Shown here in pieces: positions 2,556 through 53,259 of a stretch of 64,000 nt of DNA. This DNA is from an uncultured Gammaproteobacteria bacterium (GTDB lineage Bacteria > Pseudomonadota > Gammaproteobacteria > Eutrophobiales > Eutrophobiaceae). The notes beneath the pieces were generated by a model. It ran no database searches. It saw nothing but the letters and a program-made list of their open reading frames with translations, and had not been told where the DNA came from. The stretch is from positions 32,549-96,548 of the forward strand of contig CALSOP010000006.1 in assembly GCA_943788005.1 (NCBI GenBank), in the 5' to 3' direction. Each line of letters opens with the position of its first letter. Within the stretch, counting starts at the first letter, position 1. Position numbers and translations under genes: made by a program.

Positions 2556-2598
2556 GTATACCTAAATCAACTATCACTAAGGTATGTGAACGAGATGC

Positions 2599-3273
2599 TT
2601 AAGCTGCAGCTTTAGCTATAACTGCATAAAGCGGATCAACCAGCTAGCTCGGGCTACAGTCCAGATAATTCGACATGTCGGTAAAAGACACCCGTGTCTC
2701 TTGCATACCATGTTCTTATCCAGATACTTTCGATCTTGTTCTGACAGAGAAAGCCAGGCTGTTGTTGCTTTCGTTTCAAAAAACGCGGTTTGAGTACGTG
2801 ATTATAAGCGAGAGCCCCATCCTTCTTTGAGTACTCGCCCTATTTCTGTCAGTACAGCCGACACCGGATCTGAATCAAATAATCAATTGACACGCATAAT
2901 AGTGCACGGCATCAAATTCATTTTCTCTGAAGTGTAATTCTGGCTGCAAATTTAAATCATGTACAAGCCACTCATCTAGCTGTTTATTCCTAGCAAGCTC
3001 CCTTGCATTCATGCCTAAACCGACGATACGTTGATAATTCACATCCTCTGGATAATGGCTTACCCAACTACTCATTAAATCCAGAACGACAGCATTAACG
3101 GGAATGTACTTCCTATAAAGATCCGTGACCGCGTCAATAGCACCAGCGTCTATATGTGTTACAAATCGGGGAATTTTATAAAAAATATCATCTGGGCTCT
3201 CATCTATACGACAGTGAGCATCCTCAGATAACTTAACAGCAATATTCTTCTCAAACGACATGTTGAATAACAA
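2599..3273 (-). CDS. SAM-dependent methyltransferase (type 11-like), frameshifted
   Basis: 'DESPDDIFYKIPRFVTHID...VLDLMSSWVSHYP...GLGMNARELARN'; the C-terminal 'DPLYAVIAKAAA*' is recovered in another frame, ending at 2599. Confidence 0.7.
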
Positions 3274-4343: not shown

Positions 4344-4897
4344 TTATTCTTTTAATTGTGGCCAAGCCGCCAATAAATACTGAATCATCGAGATCAGAGT
4401 TAAAATTGCGGCGATATAAAGCAGTACCAAGTCCTATTTCATACACCGGCATACCTAACAGAGGCATTCTGAAGATAAGAAAGCCTAGCGCGACCATTTG
4501 CGCTATTGTTTTTATCTTTACCCAAGACTGAAACAGCAACCTTACTGCGCGCGCCAATTTCGGCCATCCATTCACGCAATGCCGAAACAGTAATCTCACG
4601 CCCTATAATAATAGCTGCTGGTAATGCCAAGATAAATCACAGGGTTTTGCTGTACGAGTAATAACAAACGCCACTGCAACCATTAATTTATCTGCAACAG
4701 GGTCTAAAAATGCCCCTAATGATGAAGTTTGGTTTAGTTTTCTGGCCAGATAACCATCCAGACACATCAGTCACTGCTGCTACAGTAAAGACAAGGCAGG
4801 CAAAATAGTTGTTCCAACTCAATGGCAAGTAAAAAACCAGTACAAAAACAGGTATTAGTAGAATTCGGAGTAATGTTAATTGATTAGGTATGTTCAT
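4344..4897 (-). CDS. pgsA: CDP-diacylglycerol--glycerol-3-phosphate 3-phosphatidyltransferase, frameshifted in this assembly
   Basis: '[18 protein letters not shown]', '[20 protein letters not shown]' and '[11 protein letters not shown]' spread over three frames; conserved uvrC-pgsA-tRNA(Gly,Cys,Leu) order. Confidence 0.9.
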
Positions 4898-6737: not shown

Positions 6738-7390
6738 CTAGAGTCCAAGTTGTGCCTTGACCTGAATAAAGATATCACTAAACATTGCTGCCGTCAGCCG
6801 TCTGGTGTTGGTGTTGTAGCTGACTGCAATGATAAGAGTCAGTAATAGCTCGTCCATCATCAAGCAAATGAGCTTTCCGCCATGTTGAAAAGGGTAGTCT
6901 GATTGCTTTAATCCTAAGGCCTTTATCACCGCCTTATGTGATATCTGACCTAAACACAGAATCACCGCTTTTTTATCTATCCCCTTCAATTCTTCTACCA
7001 GGTATGAATTACAGGTATTAATCTCCTCACCTACTCGGCTTGTTCTCAGGCGGCAAGCATTTCACGGCGTTAGTAATTCGACAGTGCCTTAATTTCAAAC
7101 CATCTTCCAGATCAGTGAGAGGTCTGTTTATTACTGAAACCATGCTTATAAAGCATCTCATACAAGAATTATCCCGGCATGGTCACCCGTGAAAGGTCTG
7201 CCCGTCGCATTTGCACCGTGCATACCTGGCGCGAGACCGACGATAAGTAATTTTGGGGTTTCTAACGCCAAAAGGAGGTACCGGTCGTGCGTGATAGCCG
7301 GCATATTTTCTTCGAACCTCTGTTAGAAAGCCGACTTAGCCTTGGGCACGCTGTACAATTTAGATCAAACACAGATAAATTTTCTGACAT
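6738..7390 (-). CDS. Uracil-DNA glycosylase (family 5/UdgB-like, Fe-S), frameshifted
   Basis: Recovered segments 'CTACPRL', '[10 protein letters not shown]', '[26 protein letters not shown]' and 'YNTNTRRLT'. Confidence 0.8.
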
Positions 7391-8300: not shown

Positions 8301-9299
8301 TCAATAGGTTATGTGCTTCACTTGTTGTTTATCGTAATGCATTTGTCGTCTCATCGCTAACGTGTTTTGTTTGATTAGCTCTCGTTGACTTAGTATTTCT
8401 TCGCCACGCCCATAAAAGACATCAGCCGGTGTCAGGTTATCAAGTGATTCATGATAACGCTCATGGTTGTAATAACTCACAAAACGCTGCAACTGTTCCT
8501 CCAGTTCCCCGGGGAAATAATAGTGGTGAAGTAATATCTGATTCTTCATTGAACGATGCCAGCGCTCTATCTTGCCTTGTGTTTGTGGATGATAAGGTCG
8601 ACCTCGAGTGTGCGTCATACCGTTTTCTTCAAGGTAATCGGCTAATTCACCGGAGATATAACACGGGCCATTGTCACTGAGTAAACGCGGTTTATGATTT
8701 ACCTTTACTGTATCAAGTCCCGTAAAGCGTAAGGCGTCATCCAGCGTATCAGAGACATCACGGCTACTCATGCCCGTACATAAACGCCAGGCAATAATGT
8801 AACGTGAGTAATCATCTAATACCGTGGATAAGTAATACCAACCCCAACCGATAATCTTGAAATAGGTAAAATCCGTTTGCCACATCTCATTCACGCGCGT
8901 AGTGGGCTGTTGAAACTTATCACTGGCCTCCATCAGGATATAGGCCGGACTGGTAATTAAGTCTTGTTCTTTCAGCAGCCTGTACACCGTGGATTCTGAG
9001 ACGAAGTAAGCCTTGTTGTCAGTGTAATTTACGGCTAACTCTCGTGGAGACAAATCAGGCTTCTCTAAGGCTAACTCAATAACGGCTTCACAGTGGTCTT
9101 CGGTGATTTTATTCCATACCGCATGGGGAATCGGCTTCTTGTCTTCCAAGCCATCAACGCCATTCTCTTCATAACGTTTGAGCCAGTTGTAAAAAGTGGA
9201 CTTATGAATGTCCAGCCGAGTCAGCGTTTGTCGAACCGACAGATCTGAGTTCTGTACCAGTTGAATAATCTCGACTTTATCCGATGCTAAGTACCTCAT
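8301..9299 (-). CDS. IS transposase OrfB (integrase-core DDE)
   Basis: 'WQTDFTY', 'LLSDNGPCY', 'HPQTQGKIERWHRSMK'. Confidence 0.92.
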   Translation of the reverse strand: MRYLASDKVEIIQLVQNSDLSVRQTLTRLDIHKSTFYNWLKRYEENGVDGLEDKKPIPHAVWNKITEDHCEAVIELALEKPDLSPRELAVNYTDNKAYFVSESTVYRLLKEQDLITSPAYILMEASDKFQQPTTRVNEMWQTDFTYFKIIGWGWYYLSTVLDDYSRYIIAWRLCTGMSSRDVSDTLDDALRFTGLDTVKVNHKPRLLSDNGPCYISGELADYLEENGMTHTRGRPYHPQTQGKIERWHRSMKNQILLHHYYFPGELEEQLQRFVSYYNHERYHESLDNLTPADVFYGRGEEILSQRELIKQNTLAMRRQMHYDKQQVKHITY

Positions 9300-9658
9300 A
9301 TATCGTCCTCCCCATCCCCGAGCACGCTTTTTTTAAGCAGCCGATTCTCCATGACTACTTCGCCTAAGGTTTCTTTCAGCGCAGATGTTTCAGCACGCAG
9401 TTCTTTGACTTCATCTGAGGTCGCTTCACGTACGATATCGCCTGATAAACGTTTCTTACCTGCCTCCAGAAAGTCTTTCGACCAACGGTAGTAAACATTT
9501 GGGTTTAGTCCTTCCTTGCGACATAGCTCAGCGATGCTTTCTTCGCCACGTAAGCCTTCAAGTACGATACGAATTTTTTCTTCTGCTGAATATTTTTTAC
9601 GGGTGCGTCGACGAATATCGCGCACAGTATGTTCTACACTTCTTTTACTTGTCATCAT
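9296..9658 (-). CDS. IS transposase OrfA (HTH), likely fused to OrfB by -1 frameshifting
   Basis: 'YSAEEKIRIVLEGLRGEESIAELCRKEGLNPNVYYRW'; slippery AAAAAAAG at about 9327-9334 on the minus strand. Confidence 0.9.
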   Translation of the reverse strand: MMTSKRSVEHTVRDIRRRTRKKYSAEEKIRIVLEGLRGEESIAELCRKEGLNPNVYYRWSKDFLEAGKKRLSGDIVREATSDEVKELRAETSALKETLGEVVMENRLLKKSVLGDGEDDI

Positions 9659-11059: not shown

Positions 11060-12598
11060 ATGAAGATCGGGGTGCCTAAGGAAACTTATGCAGGTGAAAA
11101 GCGTGTCGCTACAACACCTGAAGTCGTAAGTTGGTTACAAAAATTGGGGTATAGCGTCACCGTAGAGGCCGATGCTGGTACCGAAGCAAATTTTTCAAAT
11201 GAAGCCTATAGTGAAGCTGGCGCTGAGATAGCGACAGATACCAAAGCACTGTGGGATGCTTCAGATATCATATTCAAAGTCCGAGCTCCGGACGACAATG
11301 AAGTCGAATTATTGCATGACGGACAAACCTTAATCAGTTTTATCTGGCCAGCGCAAAATGAGGCTTTGATGCAAAAGCTCTCAGCCAAGAAGGTAAATAT
11401 TCTTGCAATGGACAGCGTGCCACGTATCTCGAGAGCTCAAAAGATGGATGCGCTTAGCTCCATGGCCAATATAGCCGGTTACCGCGCTATTGTTGAAGCA
11501 TCGCATAATTTTGGACGTTTTTTTACCGGCCAGATAACAGCTGCAGGAAAAGTACCTCCTGCTAAAGTATTGGTTATCGGGGCTGGAGTAGCCGGTCTTG
11601 CTGCCATTGGCGCCGCAAACAGCCTAGGCGCTATTGTTCGTTCATTCGATACTCGTCCTGAGGTTAAGGAACAAGTAGAAAGTATGGGCGCTGACTTCTT
11701 ATTACTTGAATTTGAAGAAGATGGCAGTGGCGAAGGTGGTTATGCCAAGACCATGAGTGATGAATTTATCGCCGCAGAAATGGCACTTTTTGCCGAACAA
11801 GCAAAAGAAGTCGACATTATTGTAACAACAGCCTTAATTCCTGGAAGACCCGCGCCGAAGTTAATCACAGAAGAAATGGTTAAATCCATGAAAAACGGCA
11901 GTGTTATTGTCGATTTGGCCGCTGAACAAGGTGGAAACTGCGAATTAACCGTGCCACATGAATTATCTGTCACTGAAAATGGCGTTACTATTATTGGTTA
12001 TAGCGATTTACCAAGCCGTTTACCCACACAATCCAGTCAACTCTACGCAACAAACTTGCGCCATTTATTGACCGATATGACCCCAGAGAAAGATGGTCAG
12101 ATGGTCATTGATATGGAAGATGAGGCTGTTCGCGGTGCAACGGTTATCAATGCCGGTGAAATTACCTGGCCACCACCCGCACCAAAACTATCTGCTGCAC
12201 CAGCAAAACGTGCTGAAGCACCAGCGGTTGTGGAAAAACCTGAACCGAAAAAAGCAGGCCCAATTAAGCAAATGCTACCTGTTGTTATCGGCGCTCTGGT
12301 TTTGTACGCTCTTGGATCAGTAGCTCCAGCCTCGTTTATGGCGCACTTTACAGTCTTTGTATTGGCCTGTTTTGTCGGTTATATGGTGATCTGGAATGTA
12401 TCCGCTTCACTACACACGCCACTGATGAGTGTTACCAACGCCGTTAGTAGTATTATCGTTATTGGTGCTCTGATACAGGTTTCCTCTTCAGGATTTCTGT
12501 TAGTCGGTCTTGCAGCCTTTGGCATCCTTATAACCAGCATCAACATCGCGGGTGGCTTTGCTGTTACCCATCGTATGTTACAGATGTTCAGAAAATAA
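11060..12598 (+). CDS. pntA: NAD(P) transhydrogenase subunit alpha
   Basis: '[22 protein letters not shown]', '[13 protein letters not shown]', C-terminal TM segments with '[11 protein letters not shown]'. Confidence 0.95.
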
Positions 12599-12608
12599 GG
12601 GGATTATC

Positions 12609-14016
12609 ATGTCAGAAGGTTTAGTAACAGTATCTTATATAGGCGCGACTATTTTATTCATCCTCACTTTAGGTGGATTAAGTAATCAGGAAACAGCTCG
12701 CAGAGGTAATCTCTACGGCATCATTGGTATGACGTTAGCTATCGTTGCCACCGTTTTTGGTCCAGAAGTTAGCGGCACGATGAGCTATATCCTCATTGCC
12801 GTGATGATGGGCATAGGTGGTGCAGTCGGCATAACACTAGCCAGAAAGGTTGAGATGACACAAATGCCAGAATTGGTTGCCATCCTGCACAGTCTTGTTG
12901 GTTTGGCTGCGGTATTGGTCGGCTACGTCAACTTTATGGATGAAACCATATCCTTGGTTGGTCCTGAAAAAGTCATTCATGAAGTTGAAATTTATGTCGG
13001 CATCTTAATCGGTGCAATTACGTTTTCAGGCTCAATTATTGCTTTTGGTAAACTCAGCGGCAAGATCGGTGGTAATCCACTCTTATTACCCGCACGTCAT
13101 TTCTTGAATTTGGGCTTATTGATTGCCACGATCTGGCTATGCACGGTCTTCGTCCATCAGGCGGAAACAGGTGGTGGAACCCTGCCCTTGTTGATAATGA
13201 CCTTGATAGCCCTCGCCTTTGGCGTCCATATGGTTATGGCCATCGGTGGTGCCGATATGCCCGTGGTCGTTTCGATGTTAAACAGCTACTCAGGTTGGGC
13301 AGCATCAGCAACAGGCTTCATGTTATCTAATGACCTGTTAATCGTTGTTGGCGCATTAGTAGGTAGTAGTGGTGCGATTCTGAGTTACATCATGTGTCGC
13401 GCAATGAATCGAAACTTCTTTTCAGTCATCGCGGGTGGCTTTGGTACGACTTCAGGCACAGCAGCTTCAGGTTCAGATGAAGATCAGGGTGAAGTGATAG
13501 CGATTGAGACACATGAAGTTGCAGAGCTTTTACTCGATGCCAAGGAAGTGATGATCATCCCGGGTTATGGCATGGCAGTAGCACAGGCGCAACATACCGT
13601 GCATGAAATTACCCAAACCTTACGTGATAAAAAAGATCAACGTTCGTTTTGGCATTCATCCCGTGGCCGGACGTATGCCTGGGCATATGAACGTACTACT
13701 GGCAGAAGCAAGAGTACCGTATGACATCGTCTATGAAATGGATGAGATTAACGATGATTTTCCAAACATTGATGTTTCCATCATTATCGGAGCAAATGAC
13801 ATTGTTAACCCTTCTGCTCAGGACGATCCTAATAGTCCAATAGCAGGCATGCCTGTAATGGAATGTTGGAAAGGTAAAACCACCATCGTTTTGAAGAGAG
13901 GCATGGCAACCGGTTATGCCGGTGTTCAAAATCCACTTTTCTTTAAAGAAAATACACGCATGTATTTTGGTGACGCTAAAGAAAGTCTGGATGCAGTTCT
14001 AAAAGAGATATTATAG
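12609..14016 (+). CDS. pntB: NAD(P) transhydrogenase subunit beta (one extra A at about 13630)
   Basis: '[15 protein letters not shown]', '[19 protein letters not shown]', '[11 protein letters not shown]', then '[19 protein letters not shown]' in the next frame. Confidence 0.93.
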
Positions 14017-16502: not shown

Positions 16503-17809
16503 TTATTTTCTTGCTGCCTTATCTTGTTCTCTCAACATTGCCAGTTTTTCAGAAATCTTGATTTCTAATCCACGATTAACAGGATGATAATACGTTTTAT
16601 CTTCCATATCCTCAGGAAAATAATGTTCGCCTGCGGCATACGCATCTGTTTCATTATGCGCATAACGATAATCTTTACCATAATCAAGTGACTTCATTAA
16701 TTTCGTAGGTGCATTGCGTAGATGTAACGGGACTTCTTGTGAACCAGATTGTTTTGCATCCTGCATAGCGGTATTGAATGCAGCATAAACAGCATTACTT
16801 TTTGCCGCACAGGCAAGATAAATAATAGCTTGTGCTATAGCCAATTCACCTTCCGGCGAACCAAGACGTTCTTGTGTTTCCCACGCATCTAAAGCCAGTC
16901 GTAAACCCCTGGGATCAGCATTGCCGATATCTTCTGATGCCATTCGAACTACACGACGAGCAATGTAAAATGGGTCGCAGCCTCCGTCGACCATTCTGAC
17001 AAACCAATATAATGCAGCGTCTGGGTTGGAGCCGCGCACTGATTTATGTAAGGCAGAGATTTGATCATAAAAGGCTTCACCCCCTTTATCAAAACGACGT
17101 AAGGAACCATCGACCAACACTTCATTTAATAAGGTCTCGGTAACAACCCCCTCTTCCGCCAGATTCAGAGGCTATTTCAAGAAGATTTAATGCGCGTCTA
17201 GCATCACCATCTGCAACTTCTGCCAGTTTACTAATCGCTGTTTCATCAAAAGATAAGTCTAATTGTCCAAGACCTATCTCATCATTCTCCAGTGCTATCT
17301 GCAAAATATTTTTAATGCTATCTGTTGCCAGTGATTTTAAAACATAGACACGTACTCGAGACAACAATGCATTATTTAATTCAAATGAAGGATTCTCTGT
17401 AGTCGCGCCTATAAAGGTGACGGTACCGTCTTCAACATATGGCAGAAAGGCATCTTGTTGCGATTTATTAAACCGATGTACCCTCATCAACAAAAAGCAC
17501 GGTTTCTTTACCATAAACCTCTCTATATTGTTTTGCTTGTTCTATAGCAGCACGAATATCTTTTACGCCACTCAAAACAGCAGAGACAGACAGAAATTGG
17601 GCATCACAGGATTTAGTAATTAATCTGGCAAGTGTAGTTTTACCTGTACCCGGTGGGCCCCAGAAAACCATAGAATGTAAGCGCCCTTGTTCAATTGCTA
17701 AGCGCAATGGTTTGTTATTACCTAAAATGTGATCTTGTCCAATGTAGGAGTCGATCGTTGCAGGACGCATACGATCAGCAAGAGGTCGATAATCAGTGTC
17801 GTTCTTCAT
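16503..17809 (-). CDS. rarA: Replication-associated recombination protein A (two frameshifts)
   Basis: 'PLADRMRP', Walker A '[10 protein letters not shown]', '[12 protein letters not shown]', '[19 protein letters not shown]', '[10 protein letters not shown]'. Confidence 0.92.
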
Positions 17810-39565: not shown

Positions 39566-42016
39566 CTATACGGGTGCAAATACTATTTCTTCTCCTTTTA
39601 GAAGAAAAATACCTGAGCTTCTCTCTTCTTTTACTTCGTAGACTTTATTCAAAATGCGAATTACAACGCCGGGATAAACTCTACTGCGTACGACAACACG
39701 GGCATCTTTTGAATCGTACAATAAAGTAGTTAGAGCTTCCTTTTCTTCAATCAACTCATCAAATTCATTATTTTTCTGTTCTAGCGTACCTGTCAGTTTT
39801 AGTAACAATGCATTTTGTTTTTTTTGTGCCTTAGGATTCTTGCAACAGTGTTCATGTAGTTTTTTTACATCAGAAATTGCTTTTTTAGCTCTAAGAATGT
39901 CATCCACCAATTCTCTCAATTTTATCTGTACATCATTACCAGCCCCAACTTCAACGGTAGTTTTATTAAAACTATCAGCCCCTAGAACAGCAACTTCGAC
40001 ACCTTTTATAGCCTGTGTTACAGCGCCAACTAATATGCTTTTTTTCGACTTACTATTCCCAACCTGCACTAAGCCCTGAGAGCTTGTATTGCAATTAACA
40101 AGACTATTCTCTATTAAAATATCACCTCCAGCATCGAGATTTGCATTCTCAGCAAATGAAGCAGCAATATTCTGCCCGGCGATAATTTTACTTTGCATGC
40201 CTCTGACACCCGATTTAATAATTACACTACCAACTGCCCTAACAGTCGCATTTTCAACATTTTTCTGGATGATGGCATCACCTTTTGATTCAAGAACAAA
40301 CCCTGCTCCAACATAACCTTTAACATTAACTGTCTTATCAGAATGAATATTACCTGTCTTTTGGCATACGTCACCATCAAGTTCCAGATTATCAGAAACT
40401 TTAAAATTAATACCATTAACTAATAAAATACCATCTTCTTTGATGCGCAATGTGCCGTCAGCTTCTTTTATTACACCTTCAAGTTCCGGTTCAGAATCCT
40501 TAACTTGATTTGCAATTAACTCTTCACCCAAAACATTCCGACCATCCTCTGAGCGTTGCCCCTGTATCAACCGGCCAATTACATCATTTATTTTTACATT
40601 CCATGGATAGGATTTTTCATGATAATCAATTTCTCCATTTGGCAAAACTTTCCCTCCAACGGTGAGTTCTTTGTCAAACTCTACCCTCGAATCAACACCA
40701 TCCTTAGCAGGGACACCTTCCGCAACGAGCAGATTAATCTTTGATTTTTTTTCTTTGTTTATATTTTCCAGAATTAATTTAATAGCATTATTTTTTATTC
40801 CATAGACAACATCATGTTGATTTAATGTTGCAATAACATGTTGTAACAAAATGTTTCCTTCACCGCTCGCCTCATTAGAACGTAACAAACTCATTGTTAC
40901 TTTTAATTTATCATCAGATATATTTATTCCTGATTTAACGCTCACTATATCAGATTCAAATTGGACAACGCCCAATCTCATAGACTTGTATTCACGAACC
41001 CCAGGATTCTTTATTTCTTCTATGCCAGTACCACATATGAGAGACACTTCGGTACCTTCTTCTCCTGGAACAATTTCACCGTATACATCAAGCCCTGCCG
41101 TATAGTGTAAATTTGATTTTATTCGTGCCACAGTTCTCCCAGGTAATACAGCTCGTTTATTGATATCTTCGGATTGGATATCCGTCATCCACTCAATTGT
41201 TTCATCATCGCCATTTATGGCAGCATCGCCTTTTGCAACAACCACCCTTTTAACGACATCTCCTAATGATTGAGCTTGTTTCAAAGCAGATTTAATTTGA
41301 TTGTGGTCTATACCATTTACAACACCTGCTGATTCAAGTGTTTTAAGTATATCTGCTTGTGTAACTTCTCTATTTAGACCAATAACCTTGCCGGCATGAA
41401 TATCCATACAGACTTGTAATTTGTCATCTGCTATATCAAGTCCTGATTCAACAGTGAGCACGCCAGATTTATAATGAAGTAAGCCTGCGTGACTACATTC
41501 ATAGACAACAATGCCATCAGTGTCCTGCGTATAAATAACACCCTTTTCATTATTTATTTGTTGGTCAAAGCCAGGCCGTGGGTTTTTGTCTTTACCAAAA
41601 ACATTTTTACCTTTCTGTCCTTGAGTCGATAATGTCTTTACAGCAATTTTTACCCCTGGCACCACCAGATATGATGAGCCTTCATCAATTATTCCTTCTA
41701 TACACCATTCAGTAGTTCCATTGCTGCCGTTCTCAACATCTGATTTCGCTATTACAACGGGTTCTTCTGGAATATTATCTTCATCAACCAAAGCAATTAA
41801 TTTGTCTATTGCATCTCGGTCAATGCCATAAACGACCTTCGACTGTTTTAGTTTATTCAGAATATCAATAGCTTTAACAGGTTTTCCATTACCCGTATGT
41901 CTGACTATCTTTTTGACACTGACAATTAGACCATCTTCAGGCACGGCAAGTTGGAACCATCCATTTACAGAAGGCTCTTCATCGCATCCTGATGTCTTTT
42001 GAGTTTGATTTCCCAT
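39566..42016 (-). CDS. FapA/DUF342 family protein with three tandem N-terminal modules
   Basis: Three 'S/A-DD-K-L...L....VVYGI' repeats, beta-helix 'DGDVCQKTGNI', coiled coil and 'VYPGVVIRI'. Confidence 0.8.
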   Translation of the reverse strand: MGNQTQKTSGCDEEPSVNGWFQLAVPEDGLIVSVKKIVRHTGNGKPVKAIDILNKLKQSKVVYGIDRDAIDKLIALVDEDNIPEEPVVIAKSDVENGSNGTTEWCIEGIIDEGSSYLVVPGVKIAVKTLSTQGQKGKNVFGKDKNPRPGFDQQINNEKGVIYTQDTDGIVVYECSHAGLLHYKSGVLTVESGLDIADDKLQVCMDIHAGKVIGLNREVTQADILKTLESAGVVNGIDHNQIKSALKQAQSLGDVVKRVVVAKGDAAINGDDETIEWMTDIQSEDINKRAVLPGRTVARIKSNLHYTAGLDVYGEIVPGEEGTEVSLICGTGIEEIKNPGVREYKSMRLGVVQFESDIVSVKSGINISDDKLKVTMSLLRSNEASGEGNILLQHVIATLNQHDVVYGIKNNAIKLILENINKEKKSKINLLVAEGVPAKDGVDSRVEFDKELTVGGKVLPNGEIDYHEKSYPWNVKINDVIGRLIQGQRSEDGRNVLGEELIANQVKDSEPELEGVIKEADGTLRIKEDGILLVNGINFKVSDNLELDGDVCQKTGNIHSDKTVNVKGYVGAGFVLESKGDAIIQKNVENATVRAVGSVIIKSGVRGMQSKIIAGQNIAASFAENANLDAGGDILIENSLVNCNTSSQGLVQVGNSKSKKSILVGAVTQAIKGVEVAVLGADSFNKTTVEVGAGNDVQIKLRELVDDILRAKKAISDVKKLHEHCCKNPKAQKKQNALLLKLTGTLEQKNNEFDELIEEKEALTTLLYDSKDARVVVRSRVYPGVVIRILNKVYEVKEERSSGIFLLKGEEIVFAPV

Positions 42017-43953: not shown

Positions 43954-44616
43954 ATGTCTAGAAAAAGCATGCAGCTCGATGAACAAGTTTATAATTATCT
44001 CCTGTCAGTTTCATTACGAGAAGCACAAATACTTCAAGAATGTAGAGCAGAAACAGCAAAGCATCCCATGGCTAGGATGCAAATTGCTCCTGAACAAGGT
44101 CAATTCATATCATTCTTAATAAAATTATTACACGTCAAAAAAGCACTAGAAATAGGCGTGTTTACTGGATATAGCAGTCTTTCTATAGCAATGTCATTAC
44201 CTGAGGATGGACATCTAGACGCATGCGATAGTGATGCTGAAGCAACCAAAATTGCAAAAAGGTACTGGAACAAGGCCAATGTGGCAGAAAAAATTAATTT
44301 GCATATCGGTCCAGCAATAGAAACCTTGGATAGACTATTAGAAGAAAACCATAATGACACATATGACTTAGCCTTTATTGATGCTCACAAGCCTGAGTAC
44401 ATTGATTACTACGAACGAGCATTACAACTCATCAGTCCCGGCGGTATTATTCTCGTAGACAACGTATTATGGTCTGGCAATGTAGCTGATGAAAACATTC
44501 AAGATGAAGACACTGTTGCCATACGAAATTTTAATGAACATGTAAAAAATGATGATCGCATCATGATTAGTATGTTACCCGTAGCAGATGGAATCACATT
44601 GGCAATGAAAAACTAA
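43954..44616 (+). CDS. Caffeoyl-CoA-type O-methyltransferase
   Basis: 'MQIAPEQGQF', 'LEIGVFTGYSSL', 'FIDAHK', 'VDNVLWSG'. Confidence 0.9.
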   Translation: MSRKSMQLDEQVYNYLLSVSLREAQILQECRAETAKHPMARMQIAPEQGQFISFLIKLLHVKKALEIGVFTGYSSLSIAMSLPEDGHLDACDSDAEATKIAKRYWNKANVAEKINLHIGPAIETLDRLLEENHNDTYDLAFIDAHKPEYIDYYERALQLISPGGIILVDNVLWSGNVADENIQDEDTVAIRNFNEHVKNDDRIMISMLPVADGITLAMKN

Positions 44617-46517
44617 TTAAAAAAGTCTTTAACATCATCCAATTCATGTGTGATCGGCATCGGTGGTAATGCCTTGATGATGCGCTTACCATAGGCTTTT
44701 CTTATCACACGTTTATCGCAGATGACACAGACACCCCTGTCAGTTACATCACGAATTAACCGCCCCACTCCCTGTTTTAAACTTATAGCAGCTTGGGGAA
44801 CTTGATGATCCATAAATGGATTGCTGCCCTGTTTGCTAAAGTGATTCAACCGCGCTTGCAGTACCGGATCATCCGGACTGGCAAACGGCAACTTATCAAT
44901 AATAACTAATGATAAAGCCTCGCCTTTCACATCTACCCCTTCCCAAAAACTACTCGTGCCAAGCAACACGGCATGCTTTGTGTGTCGAAACTGATTTAGT
45001 AATTCTGATCGTGGTGCCGTCCCTTGAATAAAAATAGGATAATCAATCTCCTTAGATAAAATATCTGCTGATTTTTTCAATGCTTGATGGCTGGTAAATA
45101 AAACAAAGGCATGACCTTCACTATATGACAGTAACTTGATAGTTCTTTCTATGAATGCATCAAAAAATTCATATTGATTAGGTTCGGGCAGGTCAAGTGG
45201 CACATACAAACAGGTTTGTTTTTGATAATCGAAAGGACTATTCCAAACCTGCGTTTGACATTCTTCAAGACCAAGTTGGCGGCTGTAATAATTAAAATCG
45301 TCGTTTATTGCCAAGCTCGCCGAAGTGAATACACTTGTCGCATTATATTCACTCAATCGTTGTTGAAAAGTCTCAGAGATATTTACGGGGGTTTGGTTTA
45401 GATAAAGATGATGGCCGCGTATTTCTACCCAACGAATTGATTCTTCATTTTTCGTTTCGATATAGGTATCGATGTAATTATAATGCGCCTTCGCACGCTG
45501 CCAGCAATTATCTAATAACTTCCCGCGTCCACAAGCGGTTTCAAGTATATCGATGACACATTGAAAAGCGGCCAACATATTTGGAAGTGCCGTTGATAGT
45601 AATGATTTCTCCCAAACCTCTAACCAGTTCAACCGTTGATCTTCTCGACCAAAGACTAAACGCACATCACGTATCAATTTTTCAAATTTAGTTAATACCG
45701 CTGCTAATTCTTCTATATCACCCGCTTCTTCACGGTCGGCCGTTTTTATATCAGTAATCAATTCCAATAATTGACGAGTACTCAATGTTTGACTGAAATA
45801 AGTAGATGCCAACTCAGGCAATTGATGTGCTTCATCAAACACAATTACATCAGCTAATGGCAATACTTCACCAAAACCTTTTTCTCTCAAACTCATGTCA
45901 GACAACAATAAATGATGGTTAGTGATCACCAAATCTGACTCAAGTGCAGCCTTCCTGTTTTTAAAGACAAAGCAATCATCAAAGCTTGGGCACGCTTGGC
46001 CGAGACAATTTTCTGTTGTTGAGGTTATTCTAGATCGAATCACTGAGTTCTCTTCAATCATACCTAACTCATTAATATCACCTGTCTTTGTTGAAGAAGA
46101 CCATTGCACAACCTCCTGTAGATCGGACATATTTTGGTAACTCAAGTCTTTAGTATCATGAATGGCAGTATCCATATGCTCTAGACAAAGATAATTTGAA
46201 CGGCCTTTTAGCACCATTGTTGTAGCCGGTGACGCGAGTGCTTCAAGTACGAGAGGCAAATCTTTTTGATACAATTGGTCTTGCAGATGGCGAGTACCAG
46301 TTGAGATAATTACTTTTTGTCTCGACAATAAGGCCGGCACTAGATAGGCAACTGTTTTACCGGTACCTGTCCCCGCTTCGCACACCAAATTCTGACCTTC
46401 GGAGATAGCAGCGAATATCTTATGCGCCATATCTTCCTGTTCTGGTCGATGTTGATAATCATCAATCAAATTCGCTAATGATCCACCATCAGAAAAAACT
46501 TCTTTAACTGTTTTCAT
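44613..46517 (-). CDS. yoaA: ATP-dependent DNA helicase, DinG/YoaA family
   Basis: 'EAGTGTGKT', 'KGRSNYLC', Fe-S cysteines, 'FDEAHQL', 'SFWEGVD', 'QGVGRLIR'. Confidence 0.88.
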   Translation of the reverse strand: MKTVKEVFSDGGSLANLIDDYQHRPEQEDMAHKIFAAISEGQNLVCEAGTGTGKTVAYLVPALLSRQKVIISTGTRHLQDQLYQKDLPLVLEALASPATTMVLKGRSNYLCLEHMDTAIHDTKDLSYQNMSDLQEVVQWSSSTKTGDINELGMIEENSVIRSRITSTTENCLGQACPSFDDCFVFKNRKAALESDLVITNHHLLLSDMSLREKGFGEVLPLADVIVFDEAHQLPELASTYFSQTLSTRQLLELITDIKTADREEAGDIEELAAVLTKFEKLIRDVRLVFGREDQRLNWLEVWEKSLLSTALPNMLAAFQCVIDILETACGRGKLLDNCWQRAKAHYNYIDTYIETKNEESIRWVEIRGHHLYLNQTPVNISETFQQRLSEYNATSVFTSASLAINDDFNYYSRQLGLEECQTQVWNSPFDYQKQTCLYVPLDLPEPNQYEFFDAFIERTIKLLSYSEGHAFVLFTSHQALKKSADILSKEIDYPIFIQGTAPRSELLNQFRHTKHAVLLGTSSFWEGVDVKGEALSLVIIDKLPFASPDDPVLQARLNHFSKQGSNPFMDHQVPQAAISLKQGVGRLIRDVTDRGVCVICDKRVIRKAYGKRIIKALPPMPITHELDDVKDFFN

Positions 46518-47101: not shown

Positions 47102-48058
47102 CTAATTAGATCCCAAAGTGAACGTACTGACTTCATTTATATCATCTTTTTTAGATAAAACCATCAATAAACGATCAATTCCAACTGCCACACCAGAACA
47201 TTCAGGCAATCCTGATCTCAATGCCGCCACAAAGTCTTTATCTATTGGCGGTTCTGCCAAGCCCTTATTGCTTCTCGTCGTCAATTCACTTTCAAATCGT
47301 TTCACTTGTTCATCTGCATCGATGAGTTCATTAAAGCCATTGGCTATTTCCATCCCAGAGATAAACAATTCAAAGCGTTCGCTAACAATAGGTTCGCTTT
47401 GCTTCAGTGTCGCCAAAGCCGACATACACTCTGGATAGTCGTAAATAAACAGTGGTTTACTCTGCTCAAGATTCTTTATAACCGCCTGAGAAAACAAAAA
47501 ATCGAGCAAGGCATGTCGATCATCTATAGCGTCATCCCAACCATGTTGTTTGCAAAGGGTCTGCAATTCACTTGTAGCTGCAGTATGCGGATTTAATTCT
47601 AGCGTTTGCTTAAATGCGTCTGCATAGGTCATCTTATCTGGTCTTTCTAGCCCAATATCGATCAATAACTCACCCACTTCATTCATGAGTTGATAATAAT
47701 CAAAACCCGCGTGATACCACTCCAACATGGTGAATTCTGTATTATGCCGTTTTCCTGATTCTTCATTACGGAATACATGCGCAATTTGATAGATGGAGCC
47801 CGAACCGGCGGCAAGCAATCGCTTCATACAAAATTCAGGAGACGACTGTAGATAGAGTAATGCATCACTTTCAGCCGCGCATGATGTTGTCATACTTTCA
47901 ATATACGGGTCACTGATACCGAAGTGACTGAGAATAGGCGTGTCGACCTCGATAATCTCACGTGTATTCATGAAAGACCGGATCTGCTTCAGTAAACTCG
48001 CTCGTTGTTTTATTACTTTTAGGCTAGCGCTGGGATGCCATGAAGTATCTGACGCCAT
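47102..48058 (-). CDS. epmA: EF-P lysine aminoacylase
   Basis: 'YLQSSPEFCMKRLLAAG', 'FRNEESG..HNTEFTMLEWY', 'ERFELF', 'GVAVGIDRL'; no anticodon-binding domain. Confidence 0.93.
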   Translation of the reverse strand: MASDTSWHPSASLKVIKQRASLLKQIRSFMNTREIIEVDTPILSHFGISDPYIESMTTSCAAESDALLYLQSSPEFCMKRLLAAGSGSIYQIAHVFRNEESGKRHNTEFTMLEWYHAGFDYYQLMNEVGELLIDIGLERPDKMTYADAFKQTLELNPHTAATSELQTLCKQHGWDDAIDDRHALLDFLFSQAVIKNLEQSKPLFIYDYPECMSALATLKQSEPIVSERFELFISGMEIANGFNELIDADEQVKRFESELTTRSNKGLAEPPIDKDFVAALRSGLPECSGVAVGIDRLLMVLSKKDDINEVSTFTLGSN

Positions 48059-48122: not shown

Positions 48123-48692
48123 TTACTCTTTCGCACGACTGACGTATTCGCCGGTTCTGGTGTCTATCTTAAGTAAATCGCCATTTTCAACAAATAGCGG
48201 GACTTTCACGATTGCTCCAGTCTCAAGCGTTGCGGGTTTTGAGCCACCTTGTGCGGTATCTCCTTTCAGGCCTGGATCAGTATCCGTAACTTCCAATACA
48301 ACAAAATTTGGTGCTGCAACTGACAATGGCACATCATTCCACAAGGTAACCAGGCACATTTCCTCGCCTTTAATCCATTGTTTGGCGTCACTCACGGCAT
48401 TTGCATCGGCTTCACACTGTTCATAGCTATCTTTATTCATGAAATGCCACATCTCACCATCGTTATAGAGATATTGCAGATCAAGGTCGACCACATCGGC
48501 ACCTTCAACAGATTCACCAGACTTATAGGTCTTCTCAAGCACTCGGCCTGTCTTCAGGTTGCGCATCTTGACCCGGTTAAAGGCTTGGCCTTTGCCTGGT
48601 TTAACAAACTCATTCTCAATGATTGAGCATGGATCGTTTTCAATCATTATTTTAAGACCTGATTTGAATTCGTTTGTGCTATAAGTCGCCAT
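48123..48692 (-). CDS. efp: Elongation factor P (Lys34 type)
   Basis: '[10 protein letters not shown]', '[20 protein letters not shown]', '[11 protein letters not shown]'. Confidence 0.97.
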
Positions 48693-48776
48693 GATGTCCT
48701 CTTTCAAATATGATAATTCTGTTTTGAAGCTTGATAATATAAAAAAAGCGCAATAATACATGGAACTGAAGAAATA

Positions 48777-49774
48777 ATGCAGTCTTTATCATGGCAAGAA
48801 CAACTGGCACAGGCCATACGGAAACCCACTGATTTACTTGAATTTGCTGGATTAGAGGCCGATTCAATCGGTTATAGCCAACAAGCAATAAGGCAATTTC
48901 CTGTCAGGGTCCCCTATGCTTTCGCCAATCGTATCAAGAAGAACGATCCAAACGACCCTATCTTGCGACAGGTATTTCCGTATAAAGCAGAAGAAGATAA
49001 AGCTACTGGATTCATTAATGACCCACTAGCTGAATTAAATGTTCAACCAGTAAATGGCTTATTACAAAAATATAACAGTCGTGTCTTGTCGATAACCACC
49101 GGTGCCTGTGCGGTGCATTGTCGCTATTGCTTCAGACGGCATTACCCTTATCAGGAGTCATCCTCATCAAGCGAACATTGGCAAGCGTCGTTAGATCACA
49201 TAAAAAATGATTCAAGTATTGAAGAAGTGATACTCAGCGGCGGCGATCCGCTAACGCTGTCAGATCGTCGTTTACAAGAAATATGTTTATCACTTAAAAA
49301 CATCATACATATAAAACGCATACGCTTTCATACAAGATTACCTATCGTTTTACCCGCGCGCATTACGACAACACTACTCAAGCAAATAACAGATAACGAT
49401 AAATCTATCATCTTTGTTATACATACCAATCATGCCAATGAGACTTGATGAGTGCACGTGGCTAAATGCTATTAAACGCCTTTTGCAACGCATTTGGCGT
49501 ATTAGTTTTGAATCAATCGGTATCTACTGAAAGGTGTTAACGATTCTGTTGCGGCGTTAATCAATGCTATCGGAACGTCTTAGTCGAGAATAATGTTACG
49601 CCCTACTACCTGCATCTATTGGATCCCGTTGCTGGCGCAGCACACTACGATGTCCCAATACAACATGCACAACAGTTAATACAAGAAATGCAGGCTAGCG
49701 CCTCGGGCTATCTGGTTCCTAAATTAGTAAAGGAAGAAATTGGAACAACAAGTAAGACCTTAGTAGCTAATTAA
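48777..49774 (+). CDS. epmB: EF-P beta-lysylation lysine 2,3-aminomutase (3' part frameshifted)
   Basis: '[15 protein letters not shown]', 'ILSGGDPL', 'HTNHANE', later '[16 protein letters not shown]' and '[10 protein letters not shown]'; divergent from efp. Confidence 0.9.
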
Positions 49775-49777
49775 CAC

Positions 49778-49804
49778 TAAAGTTTTTATTAGTTATGTCG
49801 ATAA
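49778..49804 (+). promoter_or_regulatory. Sigma28 (FliA)-type promoter
   Basis: TAAAGTTT-ttattagttat(11 nt)-GTCGATAA; one mismatch to extended consensus TAAAGTTT-N11-GCCGATAA. Confidence 0.75.
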
Positions 49805-49810
49805 GGGTTC

Positions 49811-49886
49811 TAAGAACGGGTTTTCCCTCCTTCCCCAATTAATCCGTTCATAAATATCCCAGCCGGGCTTATGACCCGGCTTTTTT
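49811..49886 (+). ncRNA. Candidate small RNA with an anti-SD C-rich loop and intrinsic terminator
   Basis: Stem GAACGGGTT/AATCCGTTC closing loop TTCCCTCCTTCCCCAATT, then AGCCGGG-cttatga-CCCGGCT plus T-tract; no ORF; sits directly behind the sigma28 motif; 5' end is approximate. Confidence 0.6.
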
Positions 49887-49888
49887 AC

Positions 49889-49952
49889 GTCCATCGGATG
49901 GACCGTATGTCTCGAGAGGACAGGAGTCCGAAGAGACGATTTACATGGATGG
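49889..49952 (+). repeat. GGA-loop hairpin element after a terminator; related to 10831..10918
   Basis: GTCCATC-G-GATGGAC palindrome, GTCTC..GGAC-AGGA-GTCC..GAGAC hairpin, CATGGATG. Confidence 0.45.
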
Positions 49953-50001
49953 TCCTATTTTTAAATTAGTTGTAGCTCTTCAGCTTTCGGCCAGAAGCGG
50001 A

Positions 50002-50091
50002 CGTTAACGTTTGAACTCAGATGACCGGCAACACAGTGTGCAGCGAAACGAAGCTACATGTTGACTGGTTAGACGCTGTGGTTTGTTATGT
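50002..50091 (-). other. attC-like site at the end of the ferritin-like gene
   Basis: Minus strand ACATAAC (contains the stop codon) ... imperfect inverted repeat (CAACA/TGTTG, TGTAGC/GCTGCA) ... GTTAACG; 90 bp. Confidence 0.45.
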
Positions 50092-50373
50092 ATGTGCAAT
50101 TGGTTTATCTGTAAATAAATAATCCTTAAGTTCTTTATCAAATGTAGGATCTTTTCTTCTAATCCACTCAAGAACCATCGCAGCATGTTCTTTTTCTTCG
50201 TCTCTATTATGCGCAAGTATTGCTTCTAATTCTTTATCTTTACATGCATCAACTCTTTGGTTATACCAATCAACCGCCTCAAGCTCCTCCATTAGCGATG
50301 TGATTGCTCTATGCATATCTCTTGTTTCGTTTGTAAGTTCATCTATTGGTTCGTGATAGCCTTCATTTGACAT
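50086..50373 (-). CDS. Encapsulin-associated-type ferritin-like protein (no encapsulin gene in the window)
   Basis: 'GYHEP..EL', 'DMHRAITSLMEELEAVDWYNQR', 'HNRDEEKEHAAMVLEWIRR'. Confidence 0.9.
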   Translation of the reverse strand: MSNEGYHEPIDELTNETRDMHRAITSLMEELEAVDWYNQRVDACKDKELEAILAHNRDEEKEHAAMVLEWIRRKDPTFDKELKDYLFTDKPIAHT

Positions 50374-50582
50374 AATTTATCCTCGATTTAATATTATTTC
50401 CAATCATAAAGTAGACATATAAAAAAATATACGTAACTACAGTTTTGGGTCGTTAGCTGCATACTATCACCCTGAAAGATAACGAAAAGCAATCGCTCTA
50501 CAATAATGGGCCAATACTCTGAAACGAGTAGGTTAATCATATGCATTAGTACTCAAAATAGATGACGCACAACTCTCTCATT

Positions 50583-53259
50583 TCAATTTAACTCCAACCT
50601 CAAGCTTACAGTTTGTGGATCGTTATTATTTTCAACTTTAACAAAACCAAAACTTTTGGCGAGTTTTTGCATGGGGAAATTATTTGCTAGCGTATGGGCA
50701 AGTAATCGTTTAGTACCGTGCTCCCGACAATAATCAATTGTTTTACTCATCAGCTTATTACCCACACCTTGTTTCTGCATATCTGAACGCACAATGATCG
50801 CGAATTCAGCTTCAATATTGTCTGCGTCACTCACAACTCTCGTTACGGCTATCGTCTCATCGTTATCCTCTGTATTTTTCTTTATCGCAATAAAGGCCAT
50901 TTCTCGGTCGTAATCAATTTGCGTGAAGTGTGCCATCTGTGCATGCGAAAAATTATTCACTGCTCGAAAAAAAACGAAAATAGATATCTTCAGAATTGAT
51001 ATGCGAAAAGAATTCATGATGCGCCATTTCATCTTCCGGCTTTATAGGTCTAATAAGTAATTCAGCGCCTGATGCTAGTTTAGATAGTTCTTCTAACTCT
51101 TGTGGGTAGGGTCGAATCGCAAGATGGCTTGTGCCACCGGTCGCTACTGAACTTATTTTTATTCTGGCGTCCAGTGCAATAACACCATTATTATTTGCAA
51201 CAAGCGGATTAATATCGAGTTCTTGAAGTTCAGGGTGGTCAACTATAAGTTGTGAAATTTTTACTAATGTTACAAGGATTGCCTCCATATTTGCCGGTTT
51301 AACATCCCTATAACCCTTAAGAACTTTCGCAATTCGAGTACGTTGAACAAGATCATTGGCCAACTTCATATTTAGCGGCGGCAAGGCGACAGATTTATCA
51401 TTAACCACTTCTACAGATACACCTCCATGCCCGAACAAAATGACAGGCCCAAAGATAGAATCAGTAGTAACACCAATAATCAGTTCATAGTCGTTGGGAC
51501 AGTCCACCATTGCTTGAACCGTAAAGCCTTCGATTATTGCATCAGGATTACTTTTTTTAATACGCTCTAACATCCCTTCAGCCGATAATTGTAGTATCGA
51601 AGCAGATTCAATATTCAGTAATACACCACCAACATCAGACTTGTGACTAATATCTTTTGACAGGATTTTTAATGCTACTGGAAACCCTATTGATTTTGCC
51701 TGTTTGACGGCGTTATCAACATCACGCGCAATTAATGTCTTAACAATTGGGATTTGATAGGCATCCAGCACATCTTTTGCTTCAGGCTCGGTAAGTATGT
51801 TTCGTTTTTCAGTTAAAACCGATTCAATAATTGTACGTACTCTTTCTTTATCGGGTTTGAAATCTTCAGGTATAGATGGTGGCAATTCGATCAGGTTTTT
51901 TTGATTTTTGTTATATTCAACAGCTTGCAGGAAAGCACTAATTGCTGACTCTGGCGTTTCGTATTGGGGAATATTATTTTTCTCGAAGATTTCTCTTGAA
52001 TCTTGAACCGCATCTTCACCCATCCAACAGGTCAAGACAGGTTTGTGCGATTCATTTATAGCCTCTGTAATTGCACGTGCAACCTCGGCGTTGTCGATGA
52101 TGGCTACCGGAACCAGCATTACCAATATGGCATCATAATTAGGATCATCCAACAAGACCTTTAAAGCCTGAACATATCGCTTCGCATCACTGTCTCCGAT
52201 AATGTCGACCGGGTTGCTACCCGACCATGTGACGGGGAGAAATTCATCCAAGGCTTGAATTGTTTTCGGTGCAAGTTCAGCCAAGCGCCCACCACTGTCA
52301 ATCAAACTATCAGTTGCCAATACTCCAATACCACCACCATTAGTTAATATAATCAATCTATCGCCATTTATACCTGAAACATATGCCAGTGTTTCCACAG
52401 CATCAAATAGATTTTGAATAGAATAAACGCGCAACATCCCTGCCCGGCGTACCGCAGCATCAAACACATCGTCATTTCCGGCTAATGCACCTGTATGTGA
52501 TGCAGCAGCCTTCGCACCTTCTGCCATTCTCCCCGACTTAATAACAATTACTTTCTTGTTTCGCGCAGTCGCACGTGCTGCTGACATGAATTTACGAGCA
52601 AGTTTTATTGATTCTACATAGAGCAATATCCCTGTTGTGTGTTGATCAGTGCCGAGATAATCAAGTAAATCACCGAAATCAACATCTGAACTGTCACCTA
52701 GCGAAATAAAATACGAAAAACCAATGCCGCGTGATTTGGCCCAATCTAATATTGATGTGCAAATCGCGCCAGATTGTGAAATCACCGCAATATTACCTGG
52801 GAGAGAATCAGTATGAGCAAAACTCGCGTTTAAGCCGATACCGGGGATGAGTAAACCAACACAATTAGGTCCAAGGATACGAAAATCATAATGTCGTGCG
52901 ACATCAAGCATTTGTTGTTCTAAACCATTAGCGTCATCTACTGCATGGAAACCAGCGCTTATAACAACAGCTGCACGCGTTCCTTTCTCACCTAATTGCA
53001 TAATGATGTCAGGAACTGTATGAGCGGGCGTGCAAATTACAGCAAAGTCTGGCACTACTGGTAGATCGGCTATGCGCTTATAGGCATACACACCACAGAT
53101 GGTTTCGTACTTAGGATTAACGGGTAAGATTGGCCCATCAAAGCCACCACGCAAAAGGTTTTTCATAACCACATTACCGATCGATAGCGGTCTATCAGAT
53201 GCGCCGATTAAAACTACTGACTTCGGGTTCAACAATTTGTTTAGATTGATAACGCTCAT
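50583..53259 (-). CDS. Bifunctional NDP-forming acyl-CoA ligase-like/GNAT protein lysine acetyltransferase (Pat/Pka type); extra base at about 50970
   Basis: CoA-binding 'ILGPNCVG', 'SQSGA', 'SHTGALAG', ATP-grasp 'HKSDVGGV', linker 'LAIRPYP', GNAT 'TQIDYDREMAFIA...AEFAIIVRSDMQKQGVG'. Confidence 0.9.

Follow-up and report, generated by a model that had tools for sequence, protein, structure and literature searches.

Does the short non-coding segment that follows epmB encode a regulatory RNA of its own? The segment lies at 49778-49886 (+ strand) of a 64,000-nucleotide (nt) stretch of DNA from an uncultured Gammaproteobacteria bacterium (contig CALSOP010000006.1); this whole stretch is called the window below. 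A first-pass annotation had proposed that the segment is a free-standing small RNA (sRNA) gene transcribed by sigma28 (FliA) RNA polymerase, with an exposed anti-Shine-Dalgarno loop. We conclude that the element is very probably a real, so far undescribed sigma28-type sRNA family of uncultured marine gammaproteobacteria. The account that we favour, at a probability of roughly 0.6, is a ~75-nt sigma28-driven sRNA in the 3' end of epmB whose C/U loop would act as the seed for repression of translation.

The segment reads as TAAAGTTT-N11-GTCGATAA, followed by a 9-bp stem, a GC hairpin and a T-run. Its parts are as follows, with the basis of each assignment in brackets.

49772-49774, + strand: stop codon TAA of the epmB frame (sequence)
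49778-49785, + strand: -35 box of sigma28 type, TAAAGTTT (sequence and motif match)
49786-49796, + strand: 11-nt spacer, fixed in length and free in sequence
49797-49804, + strand: -10 box, GTCGATAA; the consensus of 13 copies is GCCGATAA (sequence and motif match)
49812, + strand: predicted transcription start, an A within the near-invariant TAAGAAC
49814-49822, + strand: 5' arm of stem 1, GAACGGGTT (sequence and fold)
49823-49840, + strand: 18-nt loop, TTCCCTCCTTCCCCAATT (also given as UUCCCUCCUUCCCCAAUU), with the C/U tract UUCCCUCCUUCCCC (sequence and fold)
49841-49849, + strand: 3' arm of stem 1, AATCCGTTC, forming 9 bp including one G-U pair (sequence and fold)
49850-49860, + strand: A/U-rich single-stranded linker (fold)
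49861-49881 and 49881-49886, + strand: intrinsic terminator, made of a GC hairpin and a T-run, respectively (terminator scan and fold)

The boxes, the stem, the loop, the hairpin with its T-tract and the absence of an open reading frame (ORF), all named in the first-pass annotation, were borne out by the sequence, the fold, the terminator scan and the ORF list. The region 49810-49889 folded into two hairpins with an energy of -24.3 kcal/mol (z = -4.28), and none of 200 shuffled sequences was equally stable. The terminator scan recovered the second hairpin and its T-run, with six GC pairs and 6-7 U. No ORF of at least 40 amino acids (aa) was found on the + strand from 49775 to about 50900, and no start codon with a ribosome site was found within the predicted transcript. 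At the level of sequence, the element combines a promoter of its own, the lack of an ORF and an intrinsic terminator with a U tail, as is expected for an sRNA gene. We considered a small ORF on either strand and rejected it: none is present, and the purine-rich reverse complement has no start codon after it. An origin of the sRNA from a repeat or a mobile element was rejected as well, given the absence of local repeats at the element and its single copy per locus.

The promoter motif is specific. In the window (both strands) the element was the sole match to TAAAGTTT-N11-GCCGATAA at no more than one mismatch; both boxes and the 11-nt gap of a sigma28 promoter are present, with 15 of 16 positions matching. 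One hundred dinucleotide-preserving shuffles produced on average 0.01 matches at this level, and just one shuffle of the 100 had any match. With three mismatches allowed, three sites were found vs 1.11 expected per window. Only the near-perfect match is informative; the three-mismatch sites are not.

The same motif is known from studied bacteria. Here and below, published work is cited from excerpts of the papers, and PMC4203485 from its table. The sequence GCCGATAA is the sigma28 -10 consensus, and the -35 consensus contains TAAAG (PMC12784957). The E. coli FliA sites with the layout TAAAGTTT-N11-GCCGATAA include those of the strong promoters of tar, tsr and yhjH, and the -10 variants GTCGATAA and GACGATAA are both found at FliA sites of E. 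coli, that of fliC among them (PMC4203485). In the open complex of P. aeruginosa fliC the -10 element spans -15 to -8 (PMC12784957), and E. coli FliA starts lie 18-23 bp 3' of the motif centre (bioRxiv 10.1101/188474). Given this spacing and these start distances, the +1 position would be at about 49812, the first A of TAAGAAC. By the same analogy, the RNA would extend over about 49812-49886, a length of ~75 nt.

We then asked whether the element is kept in other genomes. Relatives were gathered by a scan of genome contigs anchored on the N-terminal ORF of EpmB, which yielded 19 loci (L001 to L019) with EpmB identity from 95% down to 45%. These loci come from metagenome-assembled genomes (MAGs) titled Thiotrichaceae bacterium or Gammaproteobacteria bacterium, two of them labelled Enterobacteriaceae by the depositors; UBA973 is placed under Thiotrichales at NCBI. 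The full element was present directly 3' of epmB in 12 of the 19 loci (L002, L003, L004 and L008-L016). Promoter boxes, C/U loop and covarying stems, the features that the first-pass annotation had suggested looking for in related genomes, are kept in these 12 loci. Together with the window they make up the 13 copies referred to below. An alignment of the 13 copies from the -35 box to the T-run (A1) gave the following mean column identities.

-35 box: 0.90
Spacer: 0.52
-10 box: 0.90
-10 box to TAAG: 0.58
TAAG and 5' arm: 0.93
3' arm: 0.91
Linker: 0.64
Terminator: 0.91

All 13 copies share the AAAGT of the -35 box and the C, G and T of the CGAT in the -10 box; L014 alone deviates at the A. The consensus of the 13 orthologous promoters is again TAAAGTTT-N11-GCCGATAA, with the 11-nt spacer in 13 of 13. 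Alignment columns 1-32 are free of gaps in every copy, the spacer keeping its length and not its sequence. EpmB identity across the genomes with the element is 63-95%, and DNA beyond the element can be aligned only among the closest relatives. As the alignment reads, this conservation is the signature of a working promoter and not of drifting intergenic DNA.

Both helices were predicted by RNAalifold from the 13 sequences. With the structure specified, 94.6% of 205 cells were paired, and 7 of the 16 pairs were changed on both sides. The covariation score was 0.173 vs 0.103 in shuffles, and none of 500 shuffles reached the observed value; sliding the partners by 1-3 columns lowered the pairing to 25-55%. 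For helix 1 the paired fraction across the 13 sequences was 98.1%, with double-sided changes in four of eight pairs. The terminator hairpin, its loop included, is identical in most copies. In the divergent L016 it is replaced by another GC hairpin; there both helices have new sequences (GAGUAGAU/CUACUC and a GC terminator of 12 bp), while the type of loop is unchanged. The copies of L004, L010, L011, L015 and L016, folded singly, each formed these two hairpins and left the C/U tract unpaired (z from -3.8 to -6.2). A conserved fold thus holds a conserved single-stranded seed, the tract being open in six single folds (the window and these five). Since stem 1 has a G-U pair in 6 of the 13 copies and the T-run follows the hairpin on the + strand only, the strand of the RNA is fixed as +.

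The loop itself contains a run of 13-18 nt made of C and U only in all 13 copies; whole loops are 65-95% pyrimidine with 0-2 G. In the window the tract includes CCUCCUU, the same letters as the 16S anti-Shine-Dalgarno sequence, and the complement of the seed is GGGGAAGGAGGGAA. Ten copies have CCUCC, and L009 has CCCCUCC. Judging by the aligned copies, the composition of the loop and its exposure are kept more strictly than the exact anti-Shine-Dalgarno letters. Over the 13 genomes purifying selection is evident, by the alignments, on the boxes, the spacer length, both helices, the loop composition and the terminator.

A covariance model (R1) was built from the 13 RNA sequences (alignment A2). 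It scored the 13 copies at 61-104 bits, with E-values from 9e-15 to 2.5e-27, a circular result because the model was built from these very sequences. What is informative in the R1 search is the lack of paralogues: no other convincing copy was found in 282,694 bases, both strands. The weak R1 matches were set aside as noise or decay, namely the L001 remnant (16.9 bits, E = 0.089), L005 6613-6677 (E = 0.16) and matches on the reverse strand.

A strict scan for the promoter in 283 kb, both strands (AAAG and CGAT cores, at most three mismatches) returned 14 sites: 12 of the 13 sRNA promoters, a site upstream of a FapA-domain gene and one intragenic site in L001. The sRNA promoter that the scan missed is that of L014, which has CGTT in place of CGAT. 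The L001 site, at 4276 (-), lies within the coding frame of a homologue of the 159-aa ORF listed further below and was taken as a chance match. The FapA site concerns two features of the window.

42128-42102, - strand: second sigma28-like motif, TAAAGTAC-N11-GTCGATAA, 86 nt before the start (42016) of the FapA-domain ORF, towards which it points
39566-42016, - strand: FapA-domain gene (FapA_N/FapA, 816 aa), a flagellar-family gene

The motif sits in the 420 nt between this gene and a divergent ORF of the TsaD family (probably tsaB). The first-pass annotation had taken this site as support for the FliA motif of the organism. The -10 variant GTCGATAA is indeed there, but the motif has three mismatches and, at the three found vs 1.11 expected given above, is not significant alone.

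How is the element related to the gene in front of it? The three genes concerned are listed here.

48777-49774, + strand: disrupted epmB, with matches of the NCBIfam EpmB model TIGR03821 to both pieces
48123-48761, - strand: efp
47102-48058, - strand: epmA

An epmB frame and its stop do precede the element, as the first-pass annotation had stated, but the gene is broken here and is a pseudogene. Its pieces are a 223-aa ORF at 48777-49448 (EpmB model positions 1-217) and a 51-aa frame at 49619-49774 (model positions 273-320), with several frame changes in between. In comparison with the intact epmB of L001 and L002, there are five insertions (+4, +4, +1, +1 and +1 nt) at 49445-49582, within ~140 nt, none of them in homopolymer runs. 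Beside the broken epmB, both efp and epmA look intact. In the relatives the epmB ORFs have 326-351 aa, L012 being the exception with 288 aa. On the short contig of L012 the epmB ORF (2181-3047) ends about 120 nt before the sRNA promoter, which suggests a C-terminal frameshift or a premature stop.

The RNA gene is intact beside the broken epmB of the window and is therefore independent of epmB integrity. On the other hand, the -35 box begins 3-8 nt past the epmB stop with no terminator between, so epmB transcripts must end at the sRNA terminator. The proposed free-standing gene is then a discrete non-coding gene with its own sigma28-type promoter, but one embedded in the 3' end of epmB and sharing its terminator.

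The architecture is of the base-pairing sRNA type: a 5' stem-loop with the seed, an A/U linker and a terminator with a U tail. In the account that we favour, RNA polymerase with sigma28/FliA would start about 8 nt past the -10 box, at TAAGAAC. The transcript would consist of the 9-bp stem presenting the C/U tract, the short A/U linker and the intrinsic terminator. The tract, as the likely seed, would pair with GGAGG-type stretches at or near the ribosome-binding sites of mRNAs from elsewhere in the genome, and translation of these targets would be lowered when the late flagellar genes switch on. By analogy with known RNAs, the loop probably pairs with purine-rich, Shine-Dalgarno-like sites and would most likely act by blocking ribosome-binding sites. 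FliA dependence, the exact ends, base-pairing, translational repression and the link to motility are what we infer from this architecture.

Several observations weigh against this account. The anti-Shine-Dalgarno core is not invariant: L015 has CUUCCCCUUCCCCCC and L016 has CUCCCCCCUUCCCC, which keep the C/U tract only. Of the anti-Shine-Dalgarno loop as first described, the exposed C/U-rich loop proved conserved, but the exact CCUCC core did not. Six of the seven double-sided changes stem from L016 alone, and the seventh is a G-U/G-C/A-U variation at one pair; the number of independent covariation events is therefore small. A search with RNAduplex over the 64-kb window and its start sites gave no credible target at a ribosome-binding site. 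The ribosome sites of FapA and efp, read by eye, showed no match to the loop. (That of epmB showed none either.) Among flagellar-family genes, the FapA-domain ORF was the only one seen in the window and the 12-kb loci of the relatives; fliA was not seen there.

Also, close relatives have a decayed element or none, namely L001 (95% EpmB identity), L005, L006 and L007 (78%); the element is therefore dispensable. L001 is the closest relative by EpmB. Its decayed copy (6990-7100) has GCCTATAA as the -10 box and no longer has a 3' arm or a terminator; a cupin ORF lies nearby on the opposite strand. Here the RNA gene has been lost naturally. In L005 and L006 the elements have diverged beyond recognition (the L005 fold has z = +0.39), and after epmB of L007, L017, L018 and L019 the element is absent.

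Two duplexes from the RNAduplex search were rejected as targets, as they do not involve conserved genes and come from a 64-kb sample only. The best non-self duplex (-26.1 kcal/mol; background mean -4.4, standard deviation 3.1) is at 58785 (-), inside a coding region. The best start-site duplex (-23.4 kcal/mol) is at 9299 (-), at the start of an IS3-family transposase ORF. The latter belongs to the following feature.

8301-9658, - strand: IS3-family transposase pair (HTH_Tnp_1 ORF and rve integrase ORF)

The match of the loop to the transposase is probably a coincidence of a G-rich stretch.

Behind the terminator we observed a second structured region, an array of hairpins with GGA.

49889-49962, + strand: GGA-hairpin array, starting directly after the T-run and ending in a U-rich stretch
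49889-49903, + strand: hairpin A, GUCCAUCGGAUGGAC
49909-49913 with 49933-49937, + strand: helix P1, GTCTC/GAGAC, enclosing GGAC-AGGA-GTCC at 49918-49929
49943-49952, + strand: ACATGGATGG (the array end is also given as ACAUGGAUGG)
L008 7103-7172, L009 7101-7172, L012 3281-3348 and L013 7097-7166: the same array after the terminator

In these four loci and the window the array begins 1-3 nt past the T-run. It has 3-4 hairpins with loops of the form CA(N)GGAUG and 4-6 GGA per 120 nt; the six GGA in the window are the maximum of any 120-nt bin (mean 0.91). For hairpin A and helix P1, 96% of the cells in the five sequences were paired, 5 of 10 pairs were changed on both sides, and 0 of 500 shuffles reached this result. 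The array also has an invariant GGA. A longer and partly degenerate array is present in L003 (about 7100-7290), where two hairpins have GAA instead of GGA. In L002 only the first hairpin is present, as it is in L011, there with GUA. The array is absent in 5 of the 13 sRNA copies (L004, L010, L014, L015 and L016), and the sRNA is therefore independent of it. In comparison with L002, the window carries an extra unit of 51 nt between near-identical repeats; the array appears to have grown by duplication. The ~120 nt of unassigned DNA between the array and the next ORF (49963-50085) are partly conserved with L002 and L003.

The SELEX (systematic evolution of ligands by exponential enrichment) consensus of CsrA is RUACARGGAUGU, and GGA is preferred in hairpin loops (PMC4347634). 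The array loops resemble this consensus, no copy matching it at 12 of 12 positions, and the array has the multiple GGA in hairpin loops that are typical of a CsrA sponge. By these features it looks like a small CsrA-binding RNA.

The GacA box has the pattern TGTAAG-N6-CTTACA. With up to three mismatches, it was not found in 49067-50592; the search as a whole gave fewer matches than shuffles did (22 vs 31.6), none of them near the element. No separate promoter for the array was evident; transcription from the sigma28 promoter that reads through the terminator may therefore extend into the array.

This brings up the most serious rival of the favoured account, in which partial read-through of the terminator yields, in some genomes, a composite RNA of ~150 nt as the biologically important product; like CsrB/Rsm RNAs, it would titrate CsrA during expression of the late flagellar genes. 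In that case the C/U loop may address the same GGA/Shine-Dalgarno-type sites as CsrA or be a separate module. The spacing of 1-3 nt behind the T-run in several genomes, the density of GGA, the likeness of the loops to the SELEX consensus, the covariation of hairpin A and P1, and the lack of an evident promoter or a nearby GacA-box-like site for the array all speak for it. Yet the terminator is canonical and strong, five copies keep the sRNA fully with no array, L003 has lost GGA to GAA in two hairpins, no Rfam CsrB/Rsm family matches, and csrA was not seen in the sequence of the window and the loci. We therefore hold a composite RNA to be possible, if unlikely. It is rather doubtful that the RNA works instead by binding a protein or as a decoy, with its loop bound by a C/U-preferring protein (e.g., ribosomal protein S1, a cold-shock-domain protein or Hfq) or mimicking the 16S 3' end. 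Such a role would fit a loop whose composition is kept as register and exact sequence drift, a terminator hairpin whose identity in most copies exceeds what termination needs, and a window scan with no target found. However, a seed that drifts within a homopyrimidine tract still pairs with GGAGG-type sites, and the target search spanned 64 kb only. The architecture is that of base-pairing sRNAs, and C-rich loops are documented pairing seeds (6C, PMC6486639; RoxS, PMC10433868).

The remaining alternatives deny that there is a separate sRNA gene here. One of them takes the hairpins as the 3' untranslated region and terminator of epmB, and the boxes as a non-functional or weak internal FliA site. 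The element does adjoin the epmB stop and provides the sole epmB terminator, and many FliA sites of E. coli lie within genes, yield unstable RNAs and lack conservation (bioRxiv 10.1101/188474). This explanation is nonetheless improbable: the boxes and the spacer length are conserved at 63-95% EpmB identity as the spacer and the flanks vary, a plain terminator needs no second conserved stem with a C/U loop, and the element is intact where epmB is a pseudogene. The last one, in which the segment serves whichever gene follows it, as a 5' leader, an attenuator or a small protein gene, is scarcely credible. Only the next ORF on the same strand about 260 nt away in L016 and L011 is in its favour; across the loci, the genes that follow are of unrelated kinds and mostly convergent, and the region has neither a + strand ORF of at least 40 aa nor a start codon with a ribosome site.

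A combination of the sRNA with the array can also be imagined, as a two-part flagellar checkpoint. From one sigma28 promoter would come a short C/U-loop RNA that competes with ribosomes and CsrA at GGAGG-type sites and, by regulated read-through, a longer form with a mini CsrA sponge; the GGA hairpin 1-3 nt behind the U-tract could set the level of read-through. This is a long shot. If it were true, completion of the basal body would rewire both Shine-Dalgarno-dependent translation and the Csr network.

The further surroundings of the element in the window are as follows.

44613-46517, - strand: yoaA
Between yoaA and epmA: 159-aa ORF with no family match
50086-50373, - strand: encapsulin-associated ferritin-like ORF (95 aa, model positions 1-88 of 114), convergent with the element
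50583-53259, - strand: split acyl-CoA synthetase/GNAT protein acetyltransferase gene

The gene downstream of the element varies by locus and is convergent in most of them, which shows the element to be independent of this gene.

Window: encapsulin-associated ferritin-like gene
L002, L004 and L010: ORFs with no family match
L003: LysR regulator
L008: HigB/HigA pair
L009: topoisomerase IV/gyrase A-type gene
L011: alpha-amylase
L013: SpoIIE phosphatase
L014: PII/DUF1538
L015: C92 peptidase
L016: pta-ackA, on the same strand

Besides epmB, other genes of the window are in pieces. For example, pntB is in two ORFs (12552-14016), rarA/mgsA is in three pieces (16503-17809), and uvrC is reduced to its C-terminal half (4894-5925). 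The acyl-CoA synthetase/GNAT gene consists of two overlapping ORFs in the window and is a single 891-aa ORF in L001. Either the genome is rich in pseudogenes, or the assembly is locally poor and prone to indels.

Does the element belong to a known family? At the gathering threshold, Rfam 15 gave only four tRNA matches in the window and none in five loci. At E of 10 or less, four weak matches were found in 49400-50700. The best of those that overlap the element were Hrs12 (19.4 bits, gathering 70) and SorX (14 bits, gathering 46.6); RsaE, 6C and CsrB/Rsm were not matched at this level in the same interval. The Rfam check that the first-pass annotation had proposed thus assigns the element to no family, the best overlapping scores being far below gathering. 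A blastn search (word 11) of 5,426 complete E. coli genomes with 49778-49965 as the query had no match at E of 0.01 or less; therefore, the element is not a homologue of MotR, FliX, FlgO or UhpU. Our literature searches (supplements of the cited papers aside) yielded no account of this RNA or of any sRNA located at epmB.

By kind, rather than by sequence, the element has relatives. MotR, FliX, FlgO and UhpU are sigma28-dependent sRNAs of E. coli derived from untranslated regions (PMC10578931), and the new element, like them, would overlay post-transcriptional control on the flagellar cascade. UhpU is the closest in kind, both RNAs having a promoter of FliA type, a place in the 3' end of a non-flagellar gene of housekeeping or metabolism and a shared terminator (PMC10578931); embedding in the 3' end of an mRNA is the same type of arrangement as in UhpU and MicL. 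On the other hand, there is no sequence similarity to the E. coli sRNAs, and the promoter here follows the stop codon and is not within the coding region. MotR and FliX pair inside coding sequences (PMC10578931), whereas the seed here is a C/U-rich hairpin loop. The hosts differ as well, being in our case uncultured marine MAGs labelled Thiotrichaceae.

In C. jejuni the sRNA CJnc230 has a single-stranded anti-Shine-Dalgarno seed, CCUU, binds the ribosome-binding sites of flgM and Cj1387c and represses flgM (PMC11187230). CJnc230 (FlmE) and CJnc170 (FlmR) are likewise sRNAs of a flagellar cascade, and CJnc230 is also encoded directly 3' of a conserved gene and has an anti-Shine-Dalgarno seed (PMC11187230). 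Compared by description, CJnc230 differs in that it is RpoN-dependent and processed, has its seed between two stem-loops and belongs to a different phylum (PMC11187230). Exposed C-rich loops serve as seeds against G-rich or Shine-Dalgarno regions in 6C of Actinobacteria (PMC6486639) and in RoxS (PMC10433868). In contrast to the element, each RNA of the RsaE/RoxS (Firmicutes) and 6C families bears several C-rich motifs; their promoters are not of sigma28 type, and they occur in other phyla. The array alone resembles CsrB and RsmX/Y/Z in its repeated hairpins with GGA in the loop. It differs from them in being much shorter (3-4 hairpins), with no own promoter or GacA-type box found and no Rfam match, and in its position behind the terminator of another sRNA.

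To date, sigma28-dependent sRNAs have been characterised in E. coli, and a related form of them in Campylobacter. If the favoured account is true, the element would be an independent example in uncultured marine gammaproteobacteria, found from sequence alone. It would make a clean new family for RNA databases, with promoter, seed and terminator all legible. The anti-Shine-Dalgarno letters in its loop raise the question of how targets would be chosen among all mRNAs that bear a Shine-Dalgarno sequence. Of all parts, the adjoining GGA array has the best prospect of novel findings; it hints that the flagellar cascade and CsrA control may be linked by a route other than GacA-type regulation.

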